The notes: generated by a model not told the origin, from the letters alone. Counted from the stretch's first letter, positions 7,386 to 57,906 are shown. The stretch is 64,000 nt of DNA from Candidatus Parcubacteria bacterium (GCA_021731405.1 JAKFXN010000005.1:169892-233891); one strand, 5' to 3'. Translations and numbers: made by a program.

Positions 7386-7901
7386 TCAAAGTTCTACAGT
7401 TGCAAGATGATTCCAGAGTTTGGCAAGAGCTTTCCAAATTGCACCTTCATAATCAAGGGCCGTTCTACACGTATCAAAAGAATATTCAGTTCCCTCTTTT
7501 GTTACTTCAAAGCGATAATTTGTCCCCTCCTCTCCGTACTGACAAGGCCTTGCAATTAGGTCGCTTTCTACAAGCATCGCTTCTGGTGTAAGTGCATTTA
7601 CCAACTCTCGCCTCAGCGCACGTGGAATCACCCCTTCTTTTACCACGGTACTTCCATCAGCAGCATCATAAAGCCCTCGATACGAACCATTTTCTAGTAG
7701 TTGAAAAGAGAGACAGGTATTATCAAGCTCGCAAGCACCATACCCCTCACCAGTAAGGACAAACTCTGTGTAGATATCGCCAGTACTCACTTCTGGAAGT
7801 ACAAACGTAGTAGCAAAACCCGCGACATATAGGTACACGCCCGCAAATAAGCCAACGGTAAAAGTAATGAGGATGCTCAGTCTATCTTGTCTGGTCAGCA
7901 T
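7386..7901 (-). CDS. Membrane-anchored hypothetical protein
   Basis: N-terminal TM helix LSILITFTVGLFAGVYLYVAGF. No known domain recognised. Confidence 0.4.
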   Translation of the reverse strand: MLTRQDRLSILITFTVGLFAGVYLYVAGFATTFVLPEVSTGDIYTEFVLTGEGYGACELDNTCLSFQLLENGSYRGLYDAADGSTVVKEGVIPRALRRELVNALTPEAMLVESDLIARPCQYGEEGTNYRFEVTKEGTEYSFDTCRTALDYEGAIWKALAKLWNHLATVEL

Positions 7902-10820: not shown

Positions 10821-11014
10821 TCAGTGAATAATATCACAGGTTTTGTAGAATTTTGCTCTAATATTCTTTTCGTTTGCGTAAGCAATCTCGAGAATAAACT
10901 GTATCTACGCCAAACAAGGATTGGTAGAATGACTAATTTTAAAATTCTTTAAATAGAGATTTTATTCCCAGTTCCTTGCTTTTTGTTTACCTTAGATTAC
11001 TATTCTTATAAATT

Positions 11015-11500
11015 ATGCCCATGCGCCTTTTTACAAATTCCAGCTTCTGGGCACAGGTATTTCTTACAAATCTCACTTCCTTGCTAATTGTGTATTTTGC
11101 AGAAGAAGCGATTTTTCGTGACACTGTCTCCGTTCCAGGCGGTGTATACGCAATATTTGCTTTTCTCTTAATTACCACTATTTTCCCATGCTTAGCATTT
11201 CTGTTTATATTTAGACACAAAACACCTTCAGATACCCTACTAGACAATAGAGTCTTATGGCTTTGCACTTTGATAGTTGGAAGTGCATACATTTCTGGAA
11301 TTTCAACTTCCAGTGTATCAGCGGCCACAATACTAGATATAGTGGCCGTTTCAGTCTTTTACATTACGGGTTTCAGACTATTACAAATGAATGAAAATGG
11401 ATTAGGTACCGGAGAGAAATTACAATCAGCAATCAAAAATTTCTTAAAGATATTTGCTGTTTCAGTCTCAATAGCTCTAATGATTCTGTTTCTTTTTTGA
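11015..11500 (+). CDS. Multi-pass membrane protein (hypothetical), in an AT-rich islet
   Basis: 4-5 hydrophobic helices. Low-GC context next to tRNA-Ser. Confidence 0.35.
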   Translation: MPMRLFTNSSFWAQVFLTNLTSLLIVYFAEEAIFRDTVSVPGGVYAIFAFLLITTIFPCLAFLFIFRHKTPSDTLLDNRVLWLCTLIVGSAYISGISTSSVSAATILDIVAVSVFYITGFRLLQMNENGLGTGEKLQSAIKNFLKIFAVSVSIALMILFLF

Positions 11501-11722
11501 TTTAATCTTTCTATATAGAGCAACGACAATTATGTATACGCCCGCGAACTCTATCGTTGCCTGAATGGTTAGCAGTAACAAAGAATTCGTATCAGTATTA
11601 AAAACTAGTCTTGGCAGAAAAAGCAACAGAGCACCTACCAATAAAGCAGTTGGTAGACTGTTAAGTGTATTTTCTAAAAAAGAGAAGTTTTTCATATTTT
11701 TTGAACTTAGACTATAAAACAC
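11477..11722 (-). CDS. Small membrane protein (hypothetical)
   Basis: 81 aa, two hydrophobic helices, AT-rich. Confidence 0.25.
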   Translation of the reverse strand: MFYSLSSKNMKNFSFLENTLNSLPTALLVGALLLFLPRLVFNTDTNSLLLLTIQATIEFAGVYIIVVALYRKIKSKKKQNH

Positions 11723-11754
11723 AGAGGAGGGGGTTCACAGAGCAATATCTTACC

Positions 11755-11997
11755 TTAAAACAATTCAAGATTAATATTACCATAACCAAAAAAAATACTC
11801 AGTATGTTGGCTACAGTATATATAGTAGCCAACAGCAAGGTTCCGCCACCAATCACGAAGACGACACCTACGCCAATAGATTGCAACCATCCGTACCCTT
11901 CATTATCATGAGCTTGTCGAGCAACCACACCAACAAAAGAAACAAGAATAAATATACTAATAATTATATTTATAAGTTCCATATTAAAATTTGCCAA
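11755..11997 (-). CDS. Small membrane protein (hypothetical)
   Basis: 80 aa, two TM helices with Gly-rich packing (VGVVFVIGGGTLLLATI). Confidence 0.3.
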   Translation of the reverse strand: MANFNMELINIIISIFILVSFVGVVARQAHDNEGYGWLQSIGVGVVFVIGGGTLLLATIYTVANILSIFFGYGNINLELF

Positions 11998-12081
11998 AAA
12001 ATCTTACGTGCATGACTTCATTCTACAGCAATAACTTAAGTCTCTATAATAAAATATGACTCTCGTACCAGCACTACTCTG

Positions 12082-12168
12082 CGGAGAGAGGGAGATTCGA
12101 ACTCCCGATTAGGTTACCCCAATACTACCTTTCCAAGGTAGCGCGTTCAGCCACTCTGCCACCTCTCC
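12082..12168 (-). tRNA. tRNA-Ser (anticodon GGA)
   Basis: Reverse complement folds as a cloverleaf. Acceptor stem GGAGAGG/TCTCTCC, anticodon loop TTGGAAA, long variable arm, T-loop GGGAGTTCGAATCTCCC. CCA is not encoded. Confidence 0.85.
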
Positions 12169-52346: not shown

Positions 52347-52649
52347 TTAAACCCAAGTGAGACAAATGTACAAAATAGCGCTAACTACTACTTGAATTAA
52401 AATCAGCAGCAAAACTCTCCCAGACCCTACGTGTGGCGCTAGAGAAAAAAGTCGAAGGATGATCTTATACGTCACTAAAGATATCGAGTAGATAATTGTC
52501 GCTCCAACGGTAACAACCAGCAGATTTGGCCCTTCAGGGTCGTCAAAAAGTAAAAACATTGTTCGAGAGCACACCAGCGATGTTAGAACCAGTATTGCTA
52601 AAGCAAATCTTTTTGAGGTAAGAGCAGATTTTATTATTGAGATGTTCAT
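52347..52649 (-). CDS. Small membrane protein
   Basis: 100 aa, three hydrophobic helices. Confidence 0.3.
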   Translation of the reverse strand: MNISIIKSALTSKRFALAILVLTSLVCSRTMFLLFDDPEGPNLLVVTVGATIIYSISLVTYKIILRLFSLAPHVGSGRVLLLILIQVVVSAILYICLTWV

Positions 52650-52738
52650 ACCTTATAGAACACAGAGTTATTGGTATTGGTTACATAGGAAAGGCCTATG
52701 CAAACACAAAGAGTCTTCCTTCGCAGAAACTGAAAACC

Positions 52739-53180: not shown

Positions 53181-53729
53181 ATGAAAAAATCTTTATCTCT
53201 AGCAATGCTGAGCGTGGTCATGCTCGGAGCGGTAGTACACGCTCCTGCTGCCCAGGCTCTCAGCTGTCTCCCAACCGCTGACTACCTAGAAACGGTTATC
53301 GACGATGGTCAGACAATCGTCTTTATCGGCACCTCTCTCGCGCGCACTGATACCGACTCATACACTTCAGAAGTAGTCGAAGTTACCGAAGCCCTACAGG
53401 GATATGTAGAAGAAGAGCTTTTTGTATACCACCAAAAGCATCCTGACTGGAATTATCTCTGCAACGCTGGCCCACAAGCCAAAGGTTCAACTGGTGTTTA
53501 CGTAGTACAGCGAGACGCTCTTGGTCAGTACAATGTGAATCAACGACTCACTCTTACCGAACCAATTGCGAAAGATTTCCTCGAACAGCTTGAAGACGCT
53601 GGTGTCGAAGGGATGACTTCCGAACTAAGTACAACCGACCAACAAAACCAGATTTTTACCACCATCGCTGAACTTATTGAACGAATCGGCAAACTCCTTG
53701 TCGAACTCAAGTATTGGAAAAACCAATAA
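53181..53729 (+). CDS. Secreted hypothetical protein
   Basis: Signal peptide MKKSLSLAMLSVVMLGAVVHAPAAQA. Terminator follows. Confidence 0.45.
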   Translation: MKKSLSLAMLSVVMLGAVVHAPAAQALSCLPTADYLETVIDDGQTIVFIGTSLARTDTDSYTSEVVEVTEALQGYVEEELFVYHQKHPDWNYLCNAGPQAKGSTGVYVVQRDALGQYNVNQRLTLTEPIAKDFLEQLEDAGVEGMTSELSTTDQQNQIFTTIAELIERIGKLLVELKYWKNQ

Positions 53730-53744
53730 CACATAGCAAACATA

Positions 53745-53776
53745 AAACCCCCGCAGCCTAGGCTGCGGGGGTTTTA
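53745..53776 (+). terminator. Rho-independent terminator
   Basis: aaacccccgcagcc-ta-ggctgcgggggtttt. Confidence 0.65.
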
Positions 53777-53823
53777 TTTGTACAAAGAACGACCCTTCGT
53801 AGAAAAATGAAAATTAGCTTAGT

Positions 53824-54132
53824 TTAAGATTTAAATAAAAGGACTACAGTTAATACTAATAGGCCTACAGTTAAAATTAACAATCCCCAAGTTAACCAGA
53901 TCAGTTTTTTAGAGTCACGACTACTGTTTGCATCCAATGTTACCAAGTTTGCATTCAGTGACCTCATTTCTTCAACCAAATTCTTTTGTTGAAATCCTGA
54001 CCATGCTGAGACTCTTATCGTCTCAGCAATAGCAAGTATGAGATTTCTTTCACCAAGCCTACTGTTCTCAATACAGTTTTGCGAAAGTTCTAAGAGAGTG
54101 TTGCCAATTTCCTTAAAATTTGGTTGTTCCAT
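53824..54132 (-). CDS. Tail-anchored small protein (hypothetical)
   Basis: C-terminal TM LIWLTWGLLILTVGLLVLTVVLL. Confidence 0.35.
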   Translation of the reverse strand: MEQPNFKEIGNTLLELSQNCIENSRLGERNLILAIAETIRVSAWSGFQQKNLVEEMRSLNANLVTLDANSSRDSKKLIWLTWGLLILTVGLLVLTVVLLFKS

Positions 54133-54189
54133 AATAAATTTTAATTAAAATAATTAATACGAAGGCCGGCTTTCGTAGCTACTTCCCGA

Positions 54190-54600
54190 CTACAACCACT
54201 GTGCTACTCCTCCATGCCCAGAGCAGGTACCTCTTCGATTCTGACTAAAACTATATGTACCGTCTTTACAGCGAGCACTAGCCCCAGCGGGGACACCGCC
54301 ATCTAGCGAATGAGCTGGTGACTTTACCTTGTTTCCATCAACGTTTGTATAATAGTTATCATTTGAGAGGTTGTTTGCTGACGCAGACCCATAAACTTCT
54401 GATTCAGTCTCTATCTCTACTTCTTCTACAATTACGGGCTTTACTGCAGGCTTCGGAACAGCTTTTTCTGTTGTTACTTGTTGCGTATATGGCGCAACAG
54501 AAGACGGAGAAACAACCTGATTTGAGGAAGACTCAGAACCAGACCCAATAATCGCAATAAATCCCACCAACCCAGCAATACCGAGTAGTATCTTGTTCAT
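54190..54600 (-). CDS. DUF3761-family secreted protein
   Basis: Signal peptide. C-terminal …YYTNVDGNKV…GASARCKDGTYSFSQNRRGTCSGHGGVAQWL signature. Confidence 0.6.
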   Translation of the reverse strand: MNKILLGIAGLVGFIAIIGSGSESSSNQVVSPSSVAPYTQQVTTEKAVPKPAVKPVIVEEVEIETESEVYGSASANNLSNDNYYTNVDGNKVKSPAHSLDGGVPAGASARCKDGTYSFSQNRRGTCSGHGGVAQWL

Positions 54601-54716
54601 ATTTAAACTTTAACCTTAAGAGTGATAACGCTATCTGCGCAGATAGTGCTACTTTAATTGTTGAATGTCAATGTCTTGGAAAATCTTTTAAGAAGCGTCT
54701 TCTTTTGTAAAAATTA

Positions 54717-55397
54717 TTAATTTAAATCAATCTTAACTGCAGATAGAATCAGGTCAGCATGATCATCTAACATCTCATCCATTAATTCTCGCGGGATTGT
54801 CTTGAGCTGCTTCTTGCTAGCAAGAGCAGCAACAGGTCTAAGGAGATGGCGTTGAACTATGATGATCTCATCCTTTGTTAGACTCTCTATTGAATCTAAC
54901 TGTCTTCGAATATCTGTATTATAACTTCGAATTGCCTTCTCTTTGGTGTTTATTCCAGAACTGATTAACTGAATAGTGGCATCAAATATAAATTGTGGTG
55001 TTCTTTCAAATCCTTCCAAATAACCATTCATGACTCTTGCTGCAGACATTGCTATGTCTACTTGCTGTGAAGTGTTGAAATCTAATTGTTTTTTTAAAGA
55101 AAAAAGGCGGTCTTCATTTAAATTTACTCGGGTAAGTTTCTGGGGAATAAAAATATCAATATCATCCTCTTTGTCCTCAAGACTTTTACGAACGCCCGAA
55201 ACGTAGTTCTCAATATTCTTAAGAGCTTCTTCGCTCTCTCTCGAAGCATAGAAAAATATATTTTCAATTTCTTTTTCAGCTTCTTTTTTCTCTCTGCTTC
55301 TATCAAACTGATCTTTTATATACCAAAGCCCAATCGAAGAAACTATTGCCATGAAGGAACCTATGAGGGATTGATATGTATAAATAAAGGTTTCCAT
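54717..55397 (-). CDS. TM + coiled-coil protein, downstream partner of the AIPR-like gene
   Basis: N-terminal TM (LIGSFMAIVSSIGLWYI) and a helical, charged remainder. Its start is 3 nt after the stop of 55401..57092. Confidence 0.45.
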   Translation of the reverse strand: METFIYTYQSLIGSFMAIVSSIGLWYIKDQFDRSREKKEAEKEIENIFFYASRESEEALKNIENYVSGVRKSLEDKEDDIDIFIPQKLTRVNLNEDRLFSLKKQLDFNTSQQVDIAMSAARVMNGYLEGFERTPQFIFDATIQLISSGINTKEKAIRSYNTDIRRQLDSIESLTKDEIIIVQRHLLRPVAALASKKQLKTIPRELMDEMLDDHADLILSAVKIDLN

Positions 55398-55400
55398 ACT

Positions 55401-57092
55401 CTAGATAGACTGATCGTAGTCCTGAACAGCGCTGTCACTTTTAAAATATCGAGTGTGTGAATATGTAACTCCTCTTCTGACCTGTTCTGCTGCAACAATA
55501 TCTTGAATATGGGATTGAGCAATTTCATAAGCACTAGCAATCTCTAAATCAGTAGGTCGTTGTAACTTGGCACTTCTTTCAAGCTCAAGAAATACCCCAT
55601 AAGCCATAAGCTCGTCGGAGTGCAATAAATAGTCTAGATTGGGGTTAGCTCCCAAGGTTAGTCTATTTTCAGTCACAACTTTCTGAATTCGATAAGCAAG
55701 ATACATCTGTAGGTAAAGAGGTGAATCAGCTTGTCCGTTAAACAACTGGTTAATGCTAGGATCTGTATGCTCCCCTTTAGTGGCCATAAATATGTTTTCG
55801 AGTAGGGAGTTTTTTGAAACTTTCGCTACACGAGGATTTTTATGGAATGTTGCATACCAAAATTTAAGGACCAATTCATTATTAACTGAATCACGTAGAC
55901 CTTCAGTCAAATCATCATTGCGTAACATTTCTCCTCTTTTCGAAACAAATTTAATTCCCTCTGCCGCAAAAAATACACTTGCACGCTCATTGAAGTCTTT
56001 ATTACTCATCTGATCTTTATAATTTATTGAAGTTTGGGTATTGGTTGATTCAGTAATCATTTCAGTAAGTTCCTGATTTCTACTTTCATACACCTTGATA
56101 GTTACATACACACCATCTAGCAAACTTGCATCTTCATTAAAAATGTCAAAAATAACTCGAGTGGTTTGTAGACCATTGACTATTACAGGATTTACAACAG
56201 GAATATTATATTGGTTTACTTGCGGAACAGAGGGGATTGAGACACTATCGCAAATAACAGTTAATCCATTGTTTAGAAACGGGAAAAAGGGCGACTTCAT
56301 ACTATCTCGCAATGTGTTTAACATTCTCTTGTTCGCCTTATTTTTACCCAAATAGCCTCGTACATTCTCAGTAAAAAGAGTGTCCATAAAACCATTTACA
56401 TCAATTTCCCTTTGTATAAGCTCACAGAGATGTAGTGCACTAATTCTAAAACTAGCTCCAGTAACTTGCCCAATAGAAAACGAATAGAGCGCTTGTCTTG
56501 AGTACGTTAGGATATTAGTTTCCTCTGGTTGAAATGTGAATTCCACTCTGTCTCTTCTTGTGCGCTGCAAATTTGAAATGCGAGTCACTAAATCAGCAGA
56601 ATCAATAACTGTATACTCGGGAGCAGCTCCCCTAGTCGTGAAATGAGCTGCTAATGGAGCATTACCAGCATGAGCTGGATCACTATCTAGTCCGCTATAA
56701 ACAAAAAACAATTTTGGAGTTAACACAACTCCTTGTCTTGTCATGTCTCTATACTCATCTACCCATGCTTGCATCCGAGGATTAATTTTTCTCTTACTCC
56801 TATTATCACCAACGAACAGATCATCAAAATCAGTTAAAAACTTCATGAGCTCGTTTTCTTTAAGGCTTGAAGAATTCTTACTCTGAAACAAACTGATCAC
56901 ACGAGTTTGGTCATCAATATAAATCGCATCAAATCCACAATCATCACCCTGACCGACCCATATATCTGTATGTACTTCATTAAAGGGCTTATCAAGAACA
57001 ATCGCTGCTGAGAGTACTTCAAAAGCTTCATCTCTTGTTATTGTATATTTGCGAACAATTGCTTGAATATATGCTGTAATAATTGGTTGCAT
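55401..57092 (-). CDS. AIPR (abortive infection phage resistance) family-like protein with N-terminal PD-(D/E)xK-like motif
   Basis: 563 aa. N-terminal GQGDDCGFDAIYIDDQ…ISLFQSK resembles a restriction-endonuclease-fold motif. Central NG-Q-T-like motif (VIVNGLQTT). Low-GC gene. Confidence 0.5.
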   Translation of the reverse strand: MQPIITAYIQAIVRKYTITRDEAFEVLSAAIVLDKPFNEVHTDIWVGQGDDCGFDAIYIDDQTRVISLFQSKNSSSLKENELMKFLTDFDDLFVGDNRSKRKINPRMQAWVDEYRDMTRQGVVLTPKLFFVYSGLDSDPAHAGNAPLAAHFTTRGAAPEYTVIDSADLVTRISNLQRTRRDRVEFTFQPEETNILTYSRQALYSFSIGQVTGASFRISALHLCELIQREIDVNGFMDTLFTENVRGYLGKNKANKRMLNTLRDSMKSPFFPFLNNGLTVICDSVSIPSVPQVNQYNIPVVNPVIVNGLQTTRVIFDIFNEDASLLDGVYVTIKVYESRNQELTEMITESTNTQTSINYKDQMSNKDFNERASVFFAAEGIKFVSKRGEMLRNDDLTEGLRDSVNNELVLKFWYATFHKNPRVAKVSKNSLLENIFMATKGEHTDPSINQLFNGQADSPLYLQMYLAYRIQKVVTENRLTLGANPNLDYLLHSDELMAYGVFLELERSAKLQRPTDLEIASAYEIAQSHIQDIVAAEQVRRGVTYSHTRYFKSDSAVQDYDQSI

Positions 57093-57285
57093 ACAAATGA
57101 GAATACACCTGTTTCAGGGGTTTAGCTAGATGAAATCATCTTCTATGATTACATAGGAAAGGCCATTGTAGTTCGCACAAGAAACACTCATATTGGGCTG
57201 TTTTCAATACCAGCCAACTGTCTCAGCAAGAAGAATAGACCGTTAAGCTTGCTTGGCGGTTTTTAATGTATTTTCAAATTTATTT

Positions 57286-57789
57286 CTAAATGTCTCGAAC
57301 AACAGGTGCAAGTTGGGGATTACTTGCCCTATCCAGCATTTCCTTCAGATCTTTTTCTTTTTGAATCTGCTTTGCTTTAATTTCCTCGTCTGTAAACAAA
57401 CGTTCCTCATTTAATGAAGTGAATAAAGATTGAGCGTTTTGGTAAATTGATTTTACTGCTTCTCGCAAATCTTCAGTACTAGAAAAAACACCTACGACCA
57501 TAGAAAAAAGTCCTCTCTGGATACCATCTGCATGATGCTGCCACACCTTAACTTGAGACTTATGTATCTCTTTTTCCTTCTGAATTAAGTCCCTTTCTTT
57601 TGTTAGTGCAACATATTGAGCAACGTTACCCATCAAAAAGACAATGCCAAATAGAGTTGATAGTGCAGTCCACCATGAAAAGAAATCGACTTGATAGCCA
57701 TTCCATTCTGTTCTTAAAAATGACAGTCCTGCAGTTACACCAACAACAAAACCAAAAGCTATATAAGCCACTGTTTTAAACGAGTTCAT
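57286..57789 (-). CDS. Two-TM + coiled-coil membrane protein (hypothetical)
   Basis: Likely start at the MNSFKT Met. The track start would overlap the tRNA. Confidence 0.4.
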   Translation of the reverse strand: MNSFKTVAYIAFGFVVGVTAGLSFLRTEWNGYQVDFFSWWTALSTLFGIVFLMGNVAQYVALTKERDLIQKEKEIHKSQVKVWQHHADGIQRGLFSMVVGVFSSTEDLREAVKSIYQNAQSLFTSLNEERLFTDEEIKAKQIQKEKDLKEMLDRASNPQLAPVVRDI

Positions 57790-57832
57790 ATAAATTATAT
57801 TAAATAACAAGCAACTCGAGCGGTGCTCGATT

Positions 57833-57906
57833 TGGCTGCCCGACAAGGACTCGAACCTCGATAGGCGGTACCAGAAACCGCAGTCCTACCATTAGACGAT
57901 CGGGCA
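57833..57906 (-). tRNA. tRNA-Gln (anticodon CTG), CCA encoded
   Basis: Reverse complement TGCCCGA…anticodon loop TTCTGGT…T-arm GGTTCGAGTCC…TCGGGCA-G-CCA. 74 nt. Confidence 0.85.

Follow-up and report, generated by a model that had tools for sequence, protein, structure and literature searches.

The segment directly 3' of a tRNA-Gln(CTG) gene in this Patescibacteria genome is a variable hotspot that carries a known single-gene defence family, AIPR/AbiU, together with an uncharacterised rider gene, which encodes a 226-aa protein and is the only new element of the islet. An earlier note on this DNA had read the two genes as a candidate defence system with an uncharacterised architecture. They co-occur in the window only (the window being the whole 64-kb stretch that was analysed), and the five distinct AIPR homologues for which gene context was read adjoin a gene for a BglII-type restriction endonuclease (REase). 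The features that the note had described were all found where it had placed them, and are listed below with the adjoining elements.

53181..53729, + strand: conserved flank gene (182 aa) in convergent orientation to the islet
53742..53777: strong bidirectional terminator hairpin (16 bp, 9 G-C pairs; terminator scan), far edge of the insertion site
53782..57832: islet, 4.05 kb, low GC, absent between tRNA and terminator in the closest relative
53824..54132, - strand: 102-aa tail-anchored protein, last islet gene (ORF; hydrophobic segment at residues 80-98, C-terminal TM)
54190..54600, - strand: DUF3761 protein with N-terminal signal/anchor (Pfam DUF3761, E 3e-26)
54717..55397, - strand: 226-aa partner, predicted single-pass membrane anchor and four-helix bundle, rare unannotated family
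55401..57092, - strand: AIPR/AbiU-family defence protein, 563 aa (Pfam, PADLOC, PHROG)
55665..56375, - strand: central AIPR domain, residues 240-476, putatively ParB/sulfiredoxin-like
56523..57092, - strand: N-terminal PD-(D/E)xK nuclease domain, approximately residues 1-190, with invariant E25, D51, D55, Q70 and K72
57146..57164, - strand: 19-nt motif GGCCTTTCCTATGTAATCA, 53 nt upstream of the AIPR start
57286..57789, - strand: 167-aa protein with N-terminal TM segment, CPR-wide family, variable cargo
57833..57906, - strand: tRNA-Gln(CTG) (ARAGORN; Rfam tRNA, 52.5 bits), conserved anchor that bounds the variable segment on one side

The islet and its insertion site

The low GC content that had been noted by reading was borne out by computation, and the GC profile is not uniform. 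The segment 53800-57906 has a GC content of 0.375 versus 0.435 across the 64-kb window, and is the window's minimum at the 4.1-kb scale, approximately 3.2 SD under the mean of all 4.1-kb windows. The edges of the islet (approximately 53782..57832) were set by comparison with an empty site in the closest relative (L099/L100; dnaX 86% aa identity), in which the end of the tRNA-Gln gene lies 9 nt from the terminator, with the flank gene beyond it, both as in the window. This comparison maps the insertion site to the base and agrees with the earlier description of a variably present islet adjacent to tRNA-Gln(CTG). The terminator hairpin is conserved at 4096-4134 of L099, immediately behind the tRNA, and the 182-aa flank gene exhibits 86% aa identity in L099/L100 and 46% in L014, with its convergent orientation beyond the tRNA-Gln retained.

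The gene order dus..dnaX-HisPhos-tRNA-Gln is kept in approximately ten relatives and is lost immediately 3' of the tRNA. Among the related genomes scanned, the same tRNA follows dnaX-HisPhos in L013-L017, L019-L021, L028, L099 and L100; L018 differs in having the anticodon ttg at that tRNA. The cargo behind the tRNA differs between relatives, whose variable regions are of mixed content, and the GC content drops after the tRNA in five of six relatives. None of the islet genes was found in the 19 relatives L012-L030. The sole islet homologue in L099/L100 is that of the 167-aa protein, which in L099 exhibits 64% identity and lies at a different position, 1.9 kb from the tRNA. As this tRNA-side gene has a homologue elsewhere in the variable region of the relative, the history of the locus is more complex than a single insertion.

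Variable presence at the 3' end of a tRNA and a deviating composition are both features of tRNA-integrated islands. A classical integrative island is not supported, as its markers are lacking: no islet protein contains a recombinase or integrase domain, and no direct repeat of the tRNA 3' end that could form attL/attR is present within 52.5-58.1 kb. Both junctions of the islet carry the 5-nt sequence CAAAT. An Rfam scan of the islet returned the tRNA only, plus sub-threshold leader-like matches on the terminator hairpin.

The 19-nt motif upstream of the AIPR gene has a second copy at 52678-52696, giving two copies per 64 kb versus 0.01 expected. A third copy is found in L099 at a breakpoint of synteny, with a gene starting 26 nt downstream of it. 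The motif could be a promoter or operator, or a recombination scar. The copies at 52678 and 57146 were also considered as attL and attR of a 4.47-kb element; this is judged unlikely, since neither the GC dip nor the junction at the empty site coincides with them and the 182-aa gene that they enclose has been retained in relatives.

The AIPR/AbiU-family protein

By its sequence, the 563-aa protein is an ordinary full-length member of the known AIPR/AbiU anti-phage family. The proposed AIPR membership was upheld by the HMM searches, which gave 122.3 bits (E 4e-35, residues 240-476) against Pfam AIPR (PF10592), for which the cut-off is 25 bits, and E 2.5e-48 against PADLOC AbiU (PDLC02357), with residues 2-535 aligned to positions 3-506 of the 537 in the profile. 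The PHROG "Abi alpha-like" profile was matched with E 2e-43. More than 365 full-length homologues occur in bacteria and archaea; among the 120 matches listed, nearly all span 93-100% of the query and are 548-624 aa in length. The protein has the architecture of the family, which is approximately 560-600 aa with an N-terminal domain, an AIPR domain and a helical C-terminus.

A set of 52 homologues contains 54 invariant columns along the entire length of the protein. The motifs quoted in the earlier note are genuine, with D55, Q70-x-K72 and N306-G307-L308-(Q309)-T310 invariant in this set except for Q309, which is conserved in at least 90%. In the central domain, NNGxT (274-278) and TNTQ (350-353) are invariant in addition to NGL(Q)T (306-310). 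The modelled N-terminal domain adopts a FokI/MspJI-like PD-(D/E)xK fold, as had been suggested from its motif, and the modelled central domain appears ParB/DUF262-like. These models are independent structural support for the view that AIPR proteins join a FokI/MspJI-like PD-(D/E)xK nuclease to a ParB/DUF262-like domain. The AIPR-type domain has previously been assigned to the ParB superfamily and linked to restriction-modification (R-M) (PMC3632139, PMC3506569), and similarity to FokI based on AF2 has been described for AbiUi of Lactococcus (PMC13064643). Single-sequence and profile searches of the PDB with the AIPR protein gave no genuine match, and an exact-sequence look-up of the AIPR and 226-aa proteins of the window returned no contig. 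Membership of the MZA system, in which MzaE is an AIPR-family protein, was not supported when judged by the MzaE equivalog score together with mzaA-D neighbours.

Other genes of the islet

The 167-aa protein, counted from its ATG (a longer ORF starting at TTG extends into the tRNA), has 62 homologues in Nomura-, Zambryski-, Shapirobacteria and others and no match in Pfam, PADLOC or PHROG. It had been described as a second TM/coiled-coil protein; the ORF and the N-terminal TM segment stand, and the protein is unrelated to the 226-aa partner, of which it was rejected as a paralogue (hhalign probability 3.6%). The DUF3761 and tail-anchored genes, both reported earlier and both confirmed, have no counterpart in the relatives examined. 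The 102-aa tail-anchored protein exhibits no family match in the Pfam, PADLOC, NCBIfam-type and PHROG libraries. A DUF3761 gene is also present in L002, two genes past a homologue of the 226-aa gene.

The 226-aa downstream protein and its genomic contexts

The stop codon of the AIPR gene and the start of the 226-aa gene are separated by a 3-nt gap (...TAG AGT ATG...), the spacing recorded in the earlier note. That note had also predicted an N-terminal TM helix followed by a long coiled coil; the TM helix was recovered, and the model replaces the coiled coil with a compact four-helix bundle. The predicted topology is N-out/C-in, which places the bundle in the cytoplasm by the positive-inside rule. 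The family comprises 16 clusters among 1.84 billion proteins and conserves the polar residues E43, R53, Q111, Q112, D114, N124 and R187, which favours a specific function over a mere spacer. A HEPN domain was ruled out, as the invariant residues do not include R-x4-6-H. No match was found in NCBIfam or PHROGs, and Pfam and PADLOC gave only sub-threshold hits at chance level (PgdA_N, E 0.006; PDC-S09, E 0.0014). The family is also without matches in plasmids, phages and IMG/VR viral contigs, an exhaustive profile search for remote homologues retrieved nothing beyond the family itself, and structural matches of the fold are generic only.

Genomic context was compared for both proteins. The AIPR sample consists of five distinct homologues (48-61% identity) on eight contigs (L004-L010 and the P0015 contig), and the partner sample of 11 loci (L001-L003, L011, L092-L098), or 12 with the window. 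Outside the window, AIPR and the 226-aa protein do not co-occur on any of the eight contigs or at any of the 11 loci. A BglII-type REase is a neighbour of AIPR in all five homologues; its gene follows that of AIPR directly on seven contigs and is encoded on the opposite strand in L009. The REase and a methyltransferase (MTase) adjoin AIPR at these loci, mostly with a serine recombinase. For the 226-aa family, the upstream gene in the ten readable partner loci encodes HsdS, HsdR/YgjP, a Ppl-like ATPase, a KAP NTPase or an unknown 983-aa protein. Counted by class, six loci have type I R-M ahead of the family and two have a Ppl-like ATPase; the KAP NTPase, AIPR and the 983-aa protein account for one locus each. 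In five loci the gene lies between hsdS and hsdR within a type I R-M operon, and the closest homologue (61% identity) sits behind the KAP NTPase. In 9 of 12 loci the start codon falls 0-4 nt past the stop of the preceding gene, irrespective of what that gene encodes, and a recognisable defence family adjoins the gene in 11 of 12, L095 being too short to tell. Since the family sits behind quite different defence enzymes elsewhere, AIPR and the 226-aa protein are not a dedicated pair, with the reservation that 12 partner loci, most on short contigs, leave room for a weak partner preference.

Proposed function and alternative explanations

A defence role of the islet is supported by the family of its main gene and by context. 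As an explanation of the whole, we consider it probable that the islet is a strain-specific cargo block that combines a stand-alone AIPR/AbiU defence protein with a non-specific 226-aa rider. The host would be a CPR bacterium of the Paceibacteria/Kaiserbacteria type, with the block occupying a hypervariable spot immediately behind the 3' end of tRNA-Gln(CTG). The AIPR/AbiU-type protein would act on its own, with the central ParB/DUF262-like domain as a nucleotide- or DNA-sensing switch that licenses the N-terminal FokI/MspJI-like PD-(D/E)xK domain, probably as a dimer or oligomer like the FokI/MspJI enzymes, to cut nucleic acid during infection. The nuclease activity and its trigger are thus predictions from fold and family; such cutting would block the expression of phage genes, an effect reported for AbiU of Lactococcus. 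The 226-aa gene may be a rider that has no promoter and relies for its transcription and translation on the defence gene upstream, whatever its type. Its product most likely would form a separate membrane-level defence layer and not a complex with AIPR, either as an Abi-type or exclusion-type effector or as a general adaptor at the site of DNA entry. A broader and more doubtful suggestion is that the family constitutes a new promoter-less plug-in module behind unrelated defence enzymes, whose contribution would be abortive infection or exclusion at the level of the membrane, or else the tethering of the enzymes where phage DNA enters.

A general membrane-docking adaptor, physically recruiting whichever enzyme is encoded upstream (type I R-M, Ppl-like, KAP or AIPR) to the inner membrane face at which phage DNA enters, would fit the position of the gene, which always comes directly after, and is coupled to, that of a defence protein handling DNA or NTPs, as well as the cytoplasmic bundle and its conserved polar surface residues. 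We regard it as unlikely, since the upstream proteins have no common domain for one adaptor to recognise and the upstream gene is hsdS in five loci and that of the YgjP peptidase in one. Equally improbable in our judgement is that the 226-aa protein, possibly with the DUF3761, 102-aa and 167-aa proteins, belongs to the CPR envelope and is unrelated to defence, having settled in recombination-prone variable regions where defence genes accumulate too. The 226-aa protein could in that case be a membrane protein that travels with islands without any part in defence, and three of the four other islet genes indeed encode membrane or secreted proteins without defence annotation, the 167-aa family occurs widely across CPR genomes, and the variable regions of relatives hold mixed cargo; the defence-family neighbour in every partner locus long enough to judge and the five copies between hsdS and hsdR, an unusual site for envelope genes, speak against it. 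Cytoplasmic sensors are paired with membrane effectors in other defence systems. A true two-component abortive-infection system of this kind, a rare new architecture in which AIPR senses infection or cuts DNA and signals to a membrane effector or anchor, would match the low GC of both genes, their shared absence from relatives and their 3-nt spacing on the same strand, which also suits a genuine two-protein complex, yet it is the least credible reading given the lack of co-occurrence outside the window, the KAP NTPase ahead of the nearest homologue, the equally tight coupling behind HsdS, YgjP, Ppl-like and KAP genes, and the fact that AbiUi-type proteins act alone (PMC13064643).

Under the preferred reading of a cargo block with a stand-alone AIPR/AbiU protein and a rider, the finding mainly corrects an over-reading, because defence islands have been described before in CPR/Patescibacteria (PMC12455944) and the main gene encodes an ordinary family member. 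It adds a further case in which a very small CPR/Patescibacteria genome maintains exchangeable defence genes at a constant hotspot beside a tRNA, and yields as a by-product a tiny unannotated membrane-protein family that is recurrently coupled tightly behind very different defence genes.

Comparison with known systems

The 226-aa family resembles guest genes of type I R-M operons, such as that of the PrrC anticodon nuclease, in its use of the hsdS-hsdR slot in five loci, and resembles AbiZ and RexB in that all are small membrane proteins associated with defence. It is unlike all three in sequence and in specific fold, and consists of one TM helix and a soluble bundle with no HEPN motif or ATPase domain. 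For the AIPR protein, GmrSD, BrxU, SspE and DndI provide a comparison as type IV restriction-like proteins in which a DUF262 ParB-like NTPase is fused to a nuclease. In these proteins the nuclease is a C-terminal DUF1524 HNH domain, whereas that of the window protein is an N-terminal PD-(D/E)xK domain; the motif residues also differ and there is no sequence-level match. The specific DNA-recognition or SRA-like domains of FokI, MspJI and AspBHI are absent from the window protein.

Closer in sequence are the modules of AIPR, BglII-type R-M and large serine recombinase (L004-L010 and the P0015 contig), in which AIPR is 48-61% identical to that of the window and a gene of approximately 225 aa follows close behind the AIPR stop. 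The next gene in these modules encodes a BglII-family restriction endonuclease, which is accompanied by its cognate methyltransferase and usually by a recombinase potentially able to move the module, whereas the window contains none of these. A search of the plasmid collection, in which AIPR matches are only 22-33% identical, did not retrieve the prototype, AbiU (AbiUi/AbiU1) of Lactococcus lactis, and the likeness to it is at the profile level, through the full-length PADLOC AbiU match and the strong Pfam AIPR match. The AbiU operon has two genes, AbiUi and the HEPN protein AbiUii; the gene downstream of AIPR in the window does not encode a HEPN protein but the membrane four-helix-bundle protein, and the host differs in being a CPR bacterium. 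In Lactococcus the AIPR-type protein alone is sufficient for resistance (PMC13064643). The window protein shares with AbiU its size (563 aa versus approximately 570-590 aa), an N-terminal domain that superposes on a FokI-type nuclease, as reported for AbiUi, and its occurrence as one large protein in mobile or variable DNA.

Gene content and composition of the islet

The islet beside tRNA-Gln(CTG) carries five genes, laid out as follows:

57833-57906, minus strand: tRNA-Gln(CTG)
57286-57789, minus strand: 167-aa protein with an N-terminal transmembrane (TM) segment
55401-57092, minus strand: 563-aa ORF (AIPR protein)
54717-55397, minus strand: 226-aa ORF (partner)
54190-54600, minus strand: DUF3761 protein
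53824-54132, minus strand: 102-aa tail-anchored protein
53742-53777: strong terminator hairpin of 16 bp

The GC content of 53800-57906 is 0.375 compared with 0.435 for the whole window, which is the minimum among 4.1-kb stretches of the 64 kb and lies approximately 3.2 SD under their mean. The AT-rich segment ending at the tRNA that the earlier note had described is thus real, as is the 3-nt spacing between the large gene and the 226-aa gene, where the junction reads TAG AGT ATG. A second low-GC patch (0.34-0.36, 10900-12000) adjoins tRNA-Ser(GGA) at 12081-12168, which apart from tRNA-Gln is the window's sole tRNA. Its two orphan ORFs, both on the plus strand (11015..11500 and 11665..12015), lack a Pfam match, and this patch may likewise be a small variable insertion.

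The window has exactly two copies of a 19-nt motif, GGCCTTTCCTATGTAAYCA, both on the minus strand: one at 57146-57164, which is 53 nt upstream of where AIPR starts, and one at 52678-52696, which is 28 nt upstream of a 100-aa ORF (52347-52649). Two copies are far above the 0.01 expected by chance in 64 kb. Written as GGCCTTTCCTATGTAA(T/C)CA, the motif also has one copy in L099, a contig of the closest relative (7878-7896), where synteny breaks and a gene starts 26 nt downstream. It may act as a common promoter/operator, or mark a site of recombination within the variable region.

The AIPR protein

The 563-aa protein scores 122 bits against Pfam AIPR (cut-off 25), matches the PADLOC AbiU profile over nearly its whole length (E 2.5e-48) and also matches a PHROG annotated as Abi protein. 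Full-length homologues, approximately 580 aa long, number in the hundreds across bacteria and archaea, and the protein is an ordinary member of the known AIPR family. At 22.9 bits, below the cut-off of 1050, it is not MzaE. When 52 homologues are aligned, E25, D51, D55, Q70 and K72 are invariant in the N-terminal part, and the AIPR domain shows the motifs NNGxT, NGL(Q)T and TNTQ, with Q309 present in at least 90% and the remaining motif residues in all.

The AlphaFold model (pLDDT 86.4, pTM 0.77) places E25 in a helix and D55 where a strand begins, with Q70-x-K72 on the following strand, the canonical PD-(D/E)xK layout as modelled. Structural matches of the model to PD-(D/E)xK nucleases are FokI (9.1), R.BspD6I (8.5), MspJI (8.3), N.BspD6I (8.3) and AspBHI (7.8), then many others; those to the ParB/sulfiredoxin fold are BrxU (6.0), DndI (5.7), PadC (5.5), sulfiredoxin (5.3) and SspE (5.2). 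In the PDB, neither Foldseek with the whole chain nor searches by sequence gave a match. The FokI match agrees with the lactococcal AbiUi, the AF2 model of which resembles FokI (PMC13064643). From the profile matches, the model and this agreement, it follows that both guesses of the earlier note, AIPR membership and a PD-(D/E)xK nuclease, were correct. The model has just two stretches of low confidence, and the invariant T350-N351-T352-Q353 loop coincides with one of them (pLDDT <50, 352-355), consistent with a flexible loop that binds a ligand or DNA.

The 226-aa membrane protein

Searches of Pfam, NCBIfam, PADLOC and PHROGs gave the 226-aa protein no significant match, and those of plasmids, phages and viral contigs gave none. 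An index of 5.8 billion proteins yielded four matches, and a profile search run exhaustively over 1.84 billion representatives returned 16 clusters only, with no remote relatives. Across the family, lysines and arginines are nearly absent before the TM segment and number 3-7 just past it; because of this clustering, the predicted topology is N-out/C-in, which puts the protein's four-helix bundle on the cytoplasmic side. The invariant polar residues (E43, R53, Q111, Q112, D114, N124 and R187-P188) point to a specific function. The public annotation of the gene (P0001, 211 aa) begins at Met16 and loses half of the TM helix. Conservation of residues 8-15 across the family shows the predicted true start to be the ATG at 55397, 3 nt past the AIPR stop.

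Gene neighbourhoods

The neighbourhoods of five distinct AIPR homologues (48-61% identity) were read on eight contigs. A BglII-family restriction endonuclease gene adjoins AIPR in all eight, within approximately 13 nt downstream in seven and on the opposite strand in L009. It is accompanied by an N6/N4 methyltransferase gene in L004-L010, the corresponding neighbour on the P0015 contig being unannotated; L004-L008 and L010 also encode a large serine recombinase. By gene content, the AIPR and BglII-type genes look like a small mobile AIPR and type II R-M module. Upstream in L006-L008 is an HTH_3 and ImmA/IrrE-type peptidase pair.

Gene context of the partner homologues at the 11 other loci
L003, L011, L092, L093, L094: in type I R-M operons, flanked by hsdS and hsdR
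L098: past hsdR and a YgjP peptidase
L002, L096: past Ppl-like ATPases
L001 (closest partner homologue, 61% identity): past a 1090-aa KAP NTPase
L097: past a 983-aa protein without an assigned family
L095: not readable, short contig

Further neighbours of the partner genes include NERD, DpnI, Panacea-domain, PDC-S05, PDC-S11 and PDC-S32 genes. Regardless of the upstream gene, the partner starts 0-4 nt past its stop in nine of the 12 loci. AIPR is present at none of the other 11, and a BglII-family gene sits beside the AIPR homologues, and on this evidence the earlier note's proposal of AIPR and a membrane protein as one system of new architecture is not supported. The two genes appear instead to be a one-off juxtaposition. 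The simplest reading is that the 226-aa gene is a promoter-less rider of defence operons, and that in the window it happens to follow an AIPR gene, occupying the slot held by the restriction enzyme in related AIPR loci.

In L001 (161-4884) three genes are strung tightly together: that of the KAP-family NTPase, that of the partner homologue, which abuts the NTPase stop, and that of a 253-aa protein matching DUF3644 weakly. They form a candidate KAP-based defence operon. A DUF3761 gene lies near the partner in two loci, adjacent in the window and two genes on in L002 (3024-3653). The two products are 64% identical across their C-terminal 58 residues, and the L002 copy carries a fused peptidoglycan-binding domain; coincidence or a common source lineage could explain the shared presence.

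Synteny and the empty site

The neighbouring dnaX-like gene, used as a query, returned genomes labelled Paceibacteria, Kaiserbacteria and Parcubacteria, and by these labels the host is a CPR/Patescibacteria bacterium. Approximately ten relatives keep a block of dus, two small genes, D,D-carboxypeptidase, dnaX, histidine phosphatase and tRNA-Gln, and the shared gene order breaks immediately past the tRNA. The 19 relatives L012-L030 lack all five islet genes, and in five of six relatives examined the 4 kb past the tRNA has a lower GC content than the side where gene order is conserved.

In the closest relative found (L099/L100; dnaX 86% amino acid identity), a matching terminator hairpin follows 9 nt past the tRNA end, and then an 86%-identical copy of the 182-aa flank gene (53181-53729 in the window). 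Therefore, approximately 4.05 kb (53782-57832) present in the window is missing there at the tRNA/terminator junction, and this empty site bears out the suspected variable presence of the islet. The 167-aa gene has a 64% homologue in L099, 1.9 kb further on amid other variable genes. No integrase was found in the islet, nor was a repeat of the tRNA 3' end. The history of the islet is more than one clean insertion, and the locus is a recombination-prone variable hotspot rather than a classical integrative island.

Between dnaX and tRNA-Gln, L012, L014, L015, L017, L019 and L021 encode two tandem histidine-phosphatase paralogues, and the window and L099/L100 a single one. The L018 contig (1-9538) has tRNA-Gln(TTG), not CTG, past dnaX and a second, inverted dus/carboxypeptidase/dnaX block (~50% identity); it may therefore be chimeric, assembled from two CPR genomes.

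Proposed function

With family membership, modelled domain folds, invariant catalytic-type residues, insertion junctions, operon layout and neighbourhoods established directly, a mechanism may be proposed in which the AIPR protein would act alone. By analogy with GmrSD, BrxU and SspE, its ParB/DUF262-like domain would be a switch that senses nucleotide or DNA and would license nucleic acid cleavage by the FokI/MspJI-like domain once infection has occurred. Cleavage probably requires dimerisation, as for FokI and MspJI, and would block phage gene expression in an AbiU-like manner.

The rider would have a separate function at the membrane level, although the rider hypothesis for the 226-aa family is put forward tentatively. 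An autonomous Abi- or exclusion-type protein is favoured over a member of a specific complex, since the upstream proteins are too diverse to offer one common docking surface. A general membrane adaptor comes second and is unlikely; an envelope passenger without a defence role is equally so. A true two-component system of AIPR and partner is the most doubtful, given the partner loci that lack AIPR.

Comparison with known systems

AbiUi gives resistance by itself, slowing the onset of phage transcription, and its effect is weakened by the second gene product, the HEPN protein AbiUii (PMC13064643). AbiU1/AIPR has been placed in the ParB nuclease superfamily, with frequent R-M association (PMC3632139, PMC3506569), and defence-bearing islands have already been described in Patescibacteria (PMC12455944). 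The AIPR gene and its long-known link with R-M are therefore not new. The new element is only the unannotated rider family, a putative defence association drawn by guilt by association from 12 loci.
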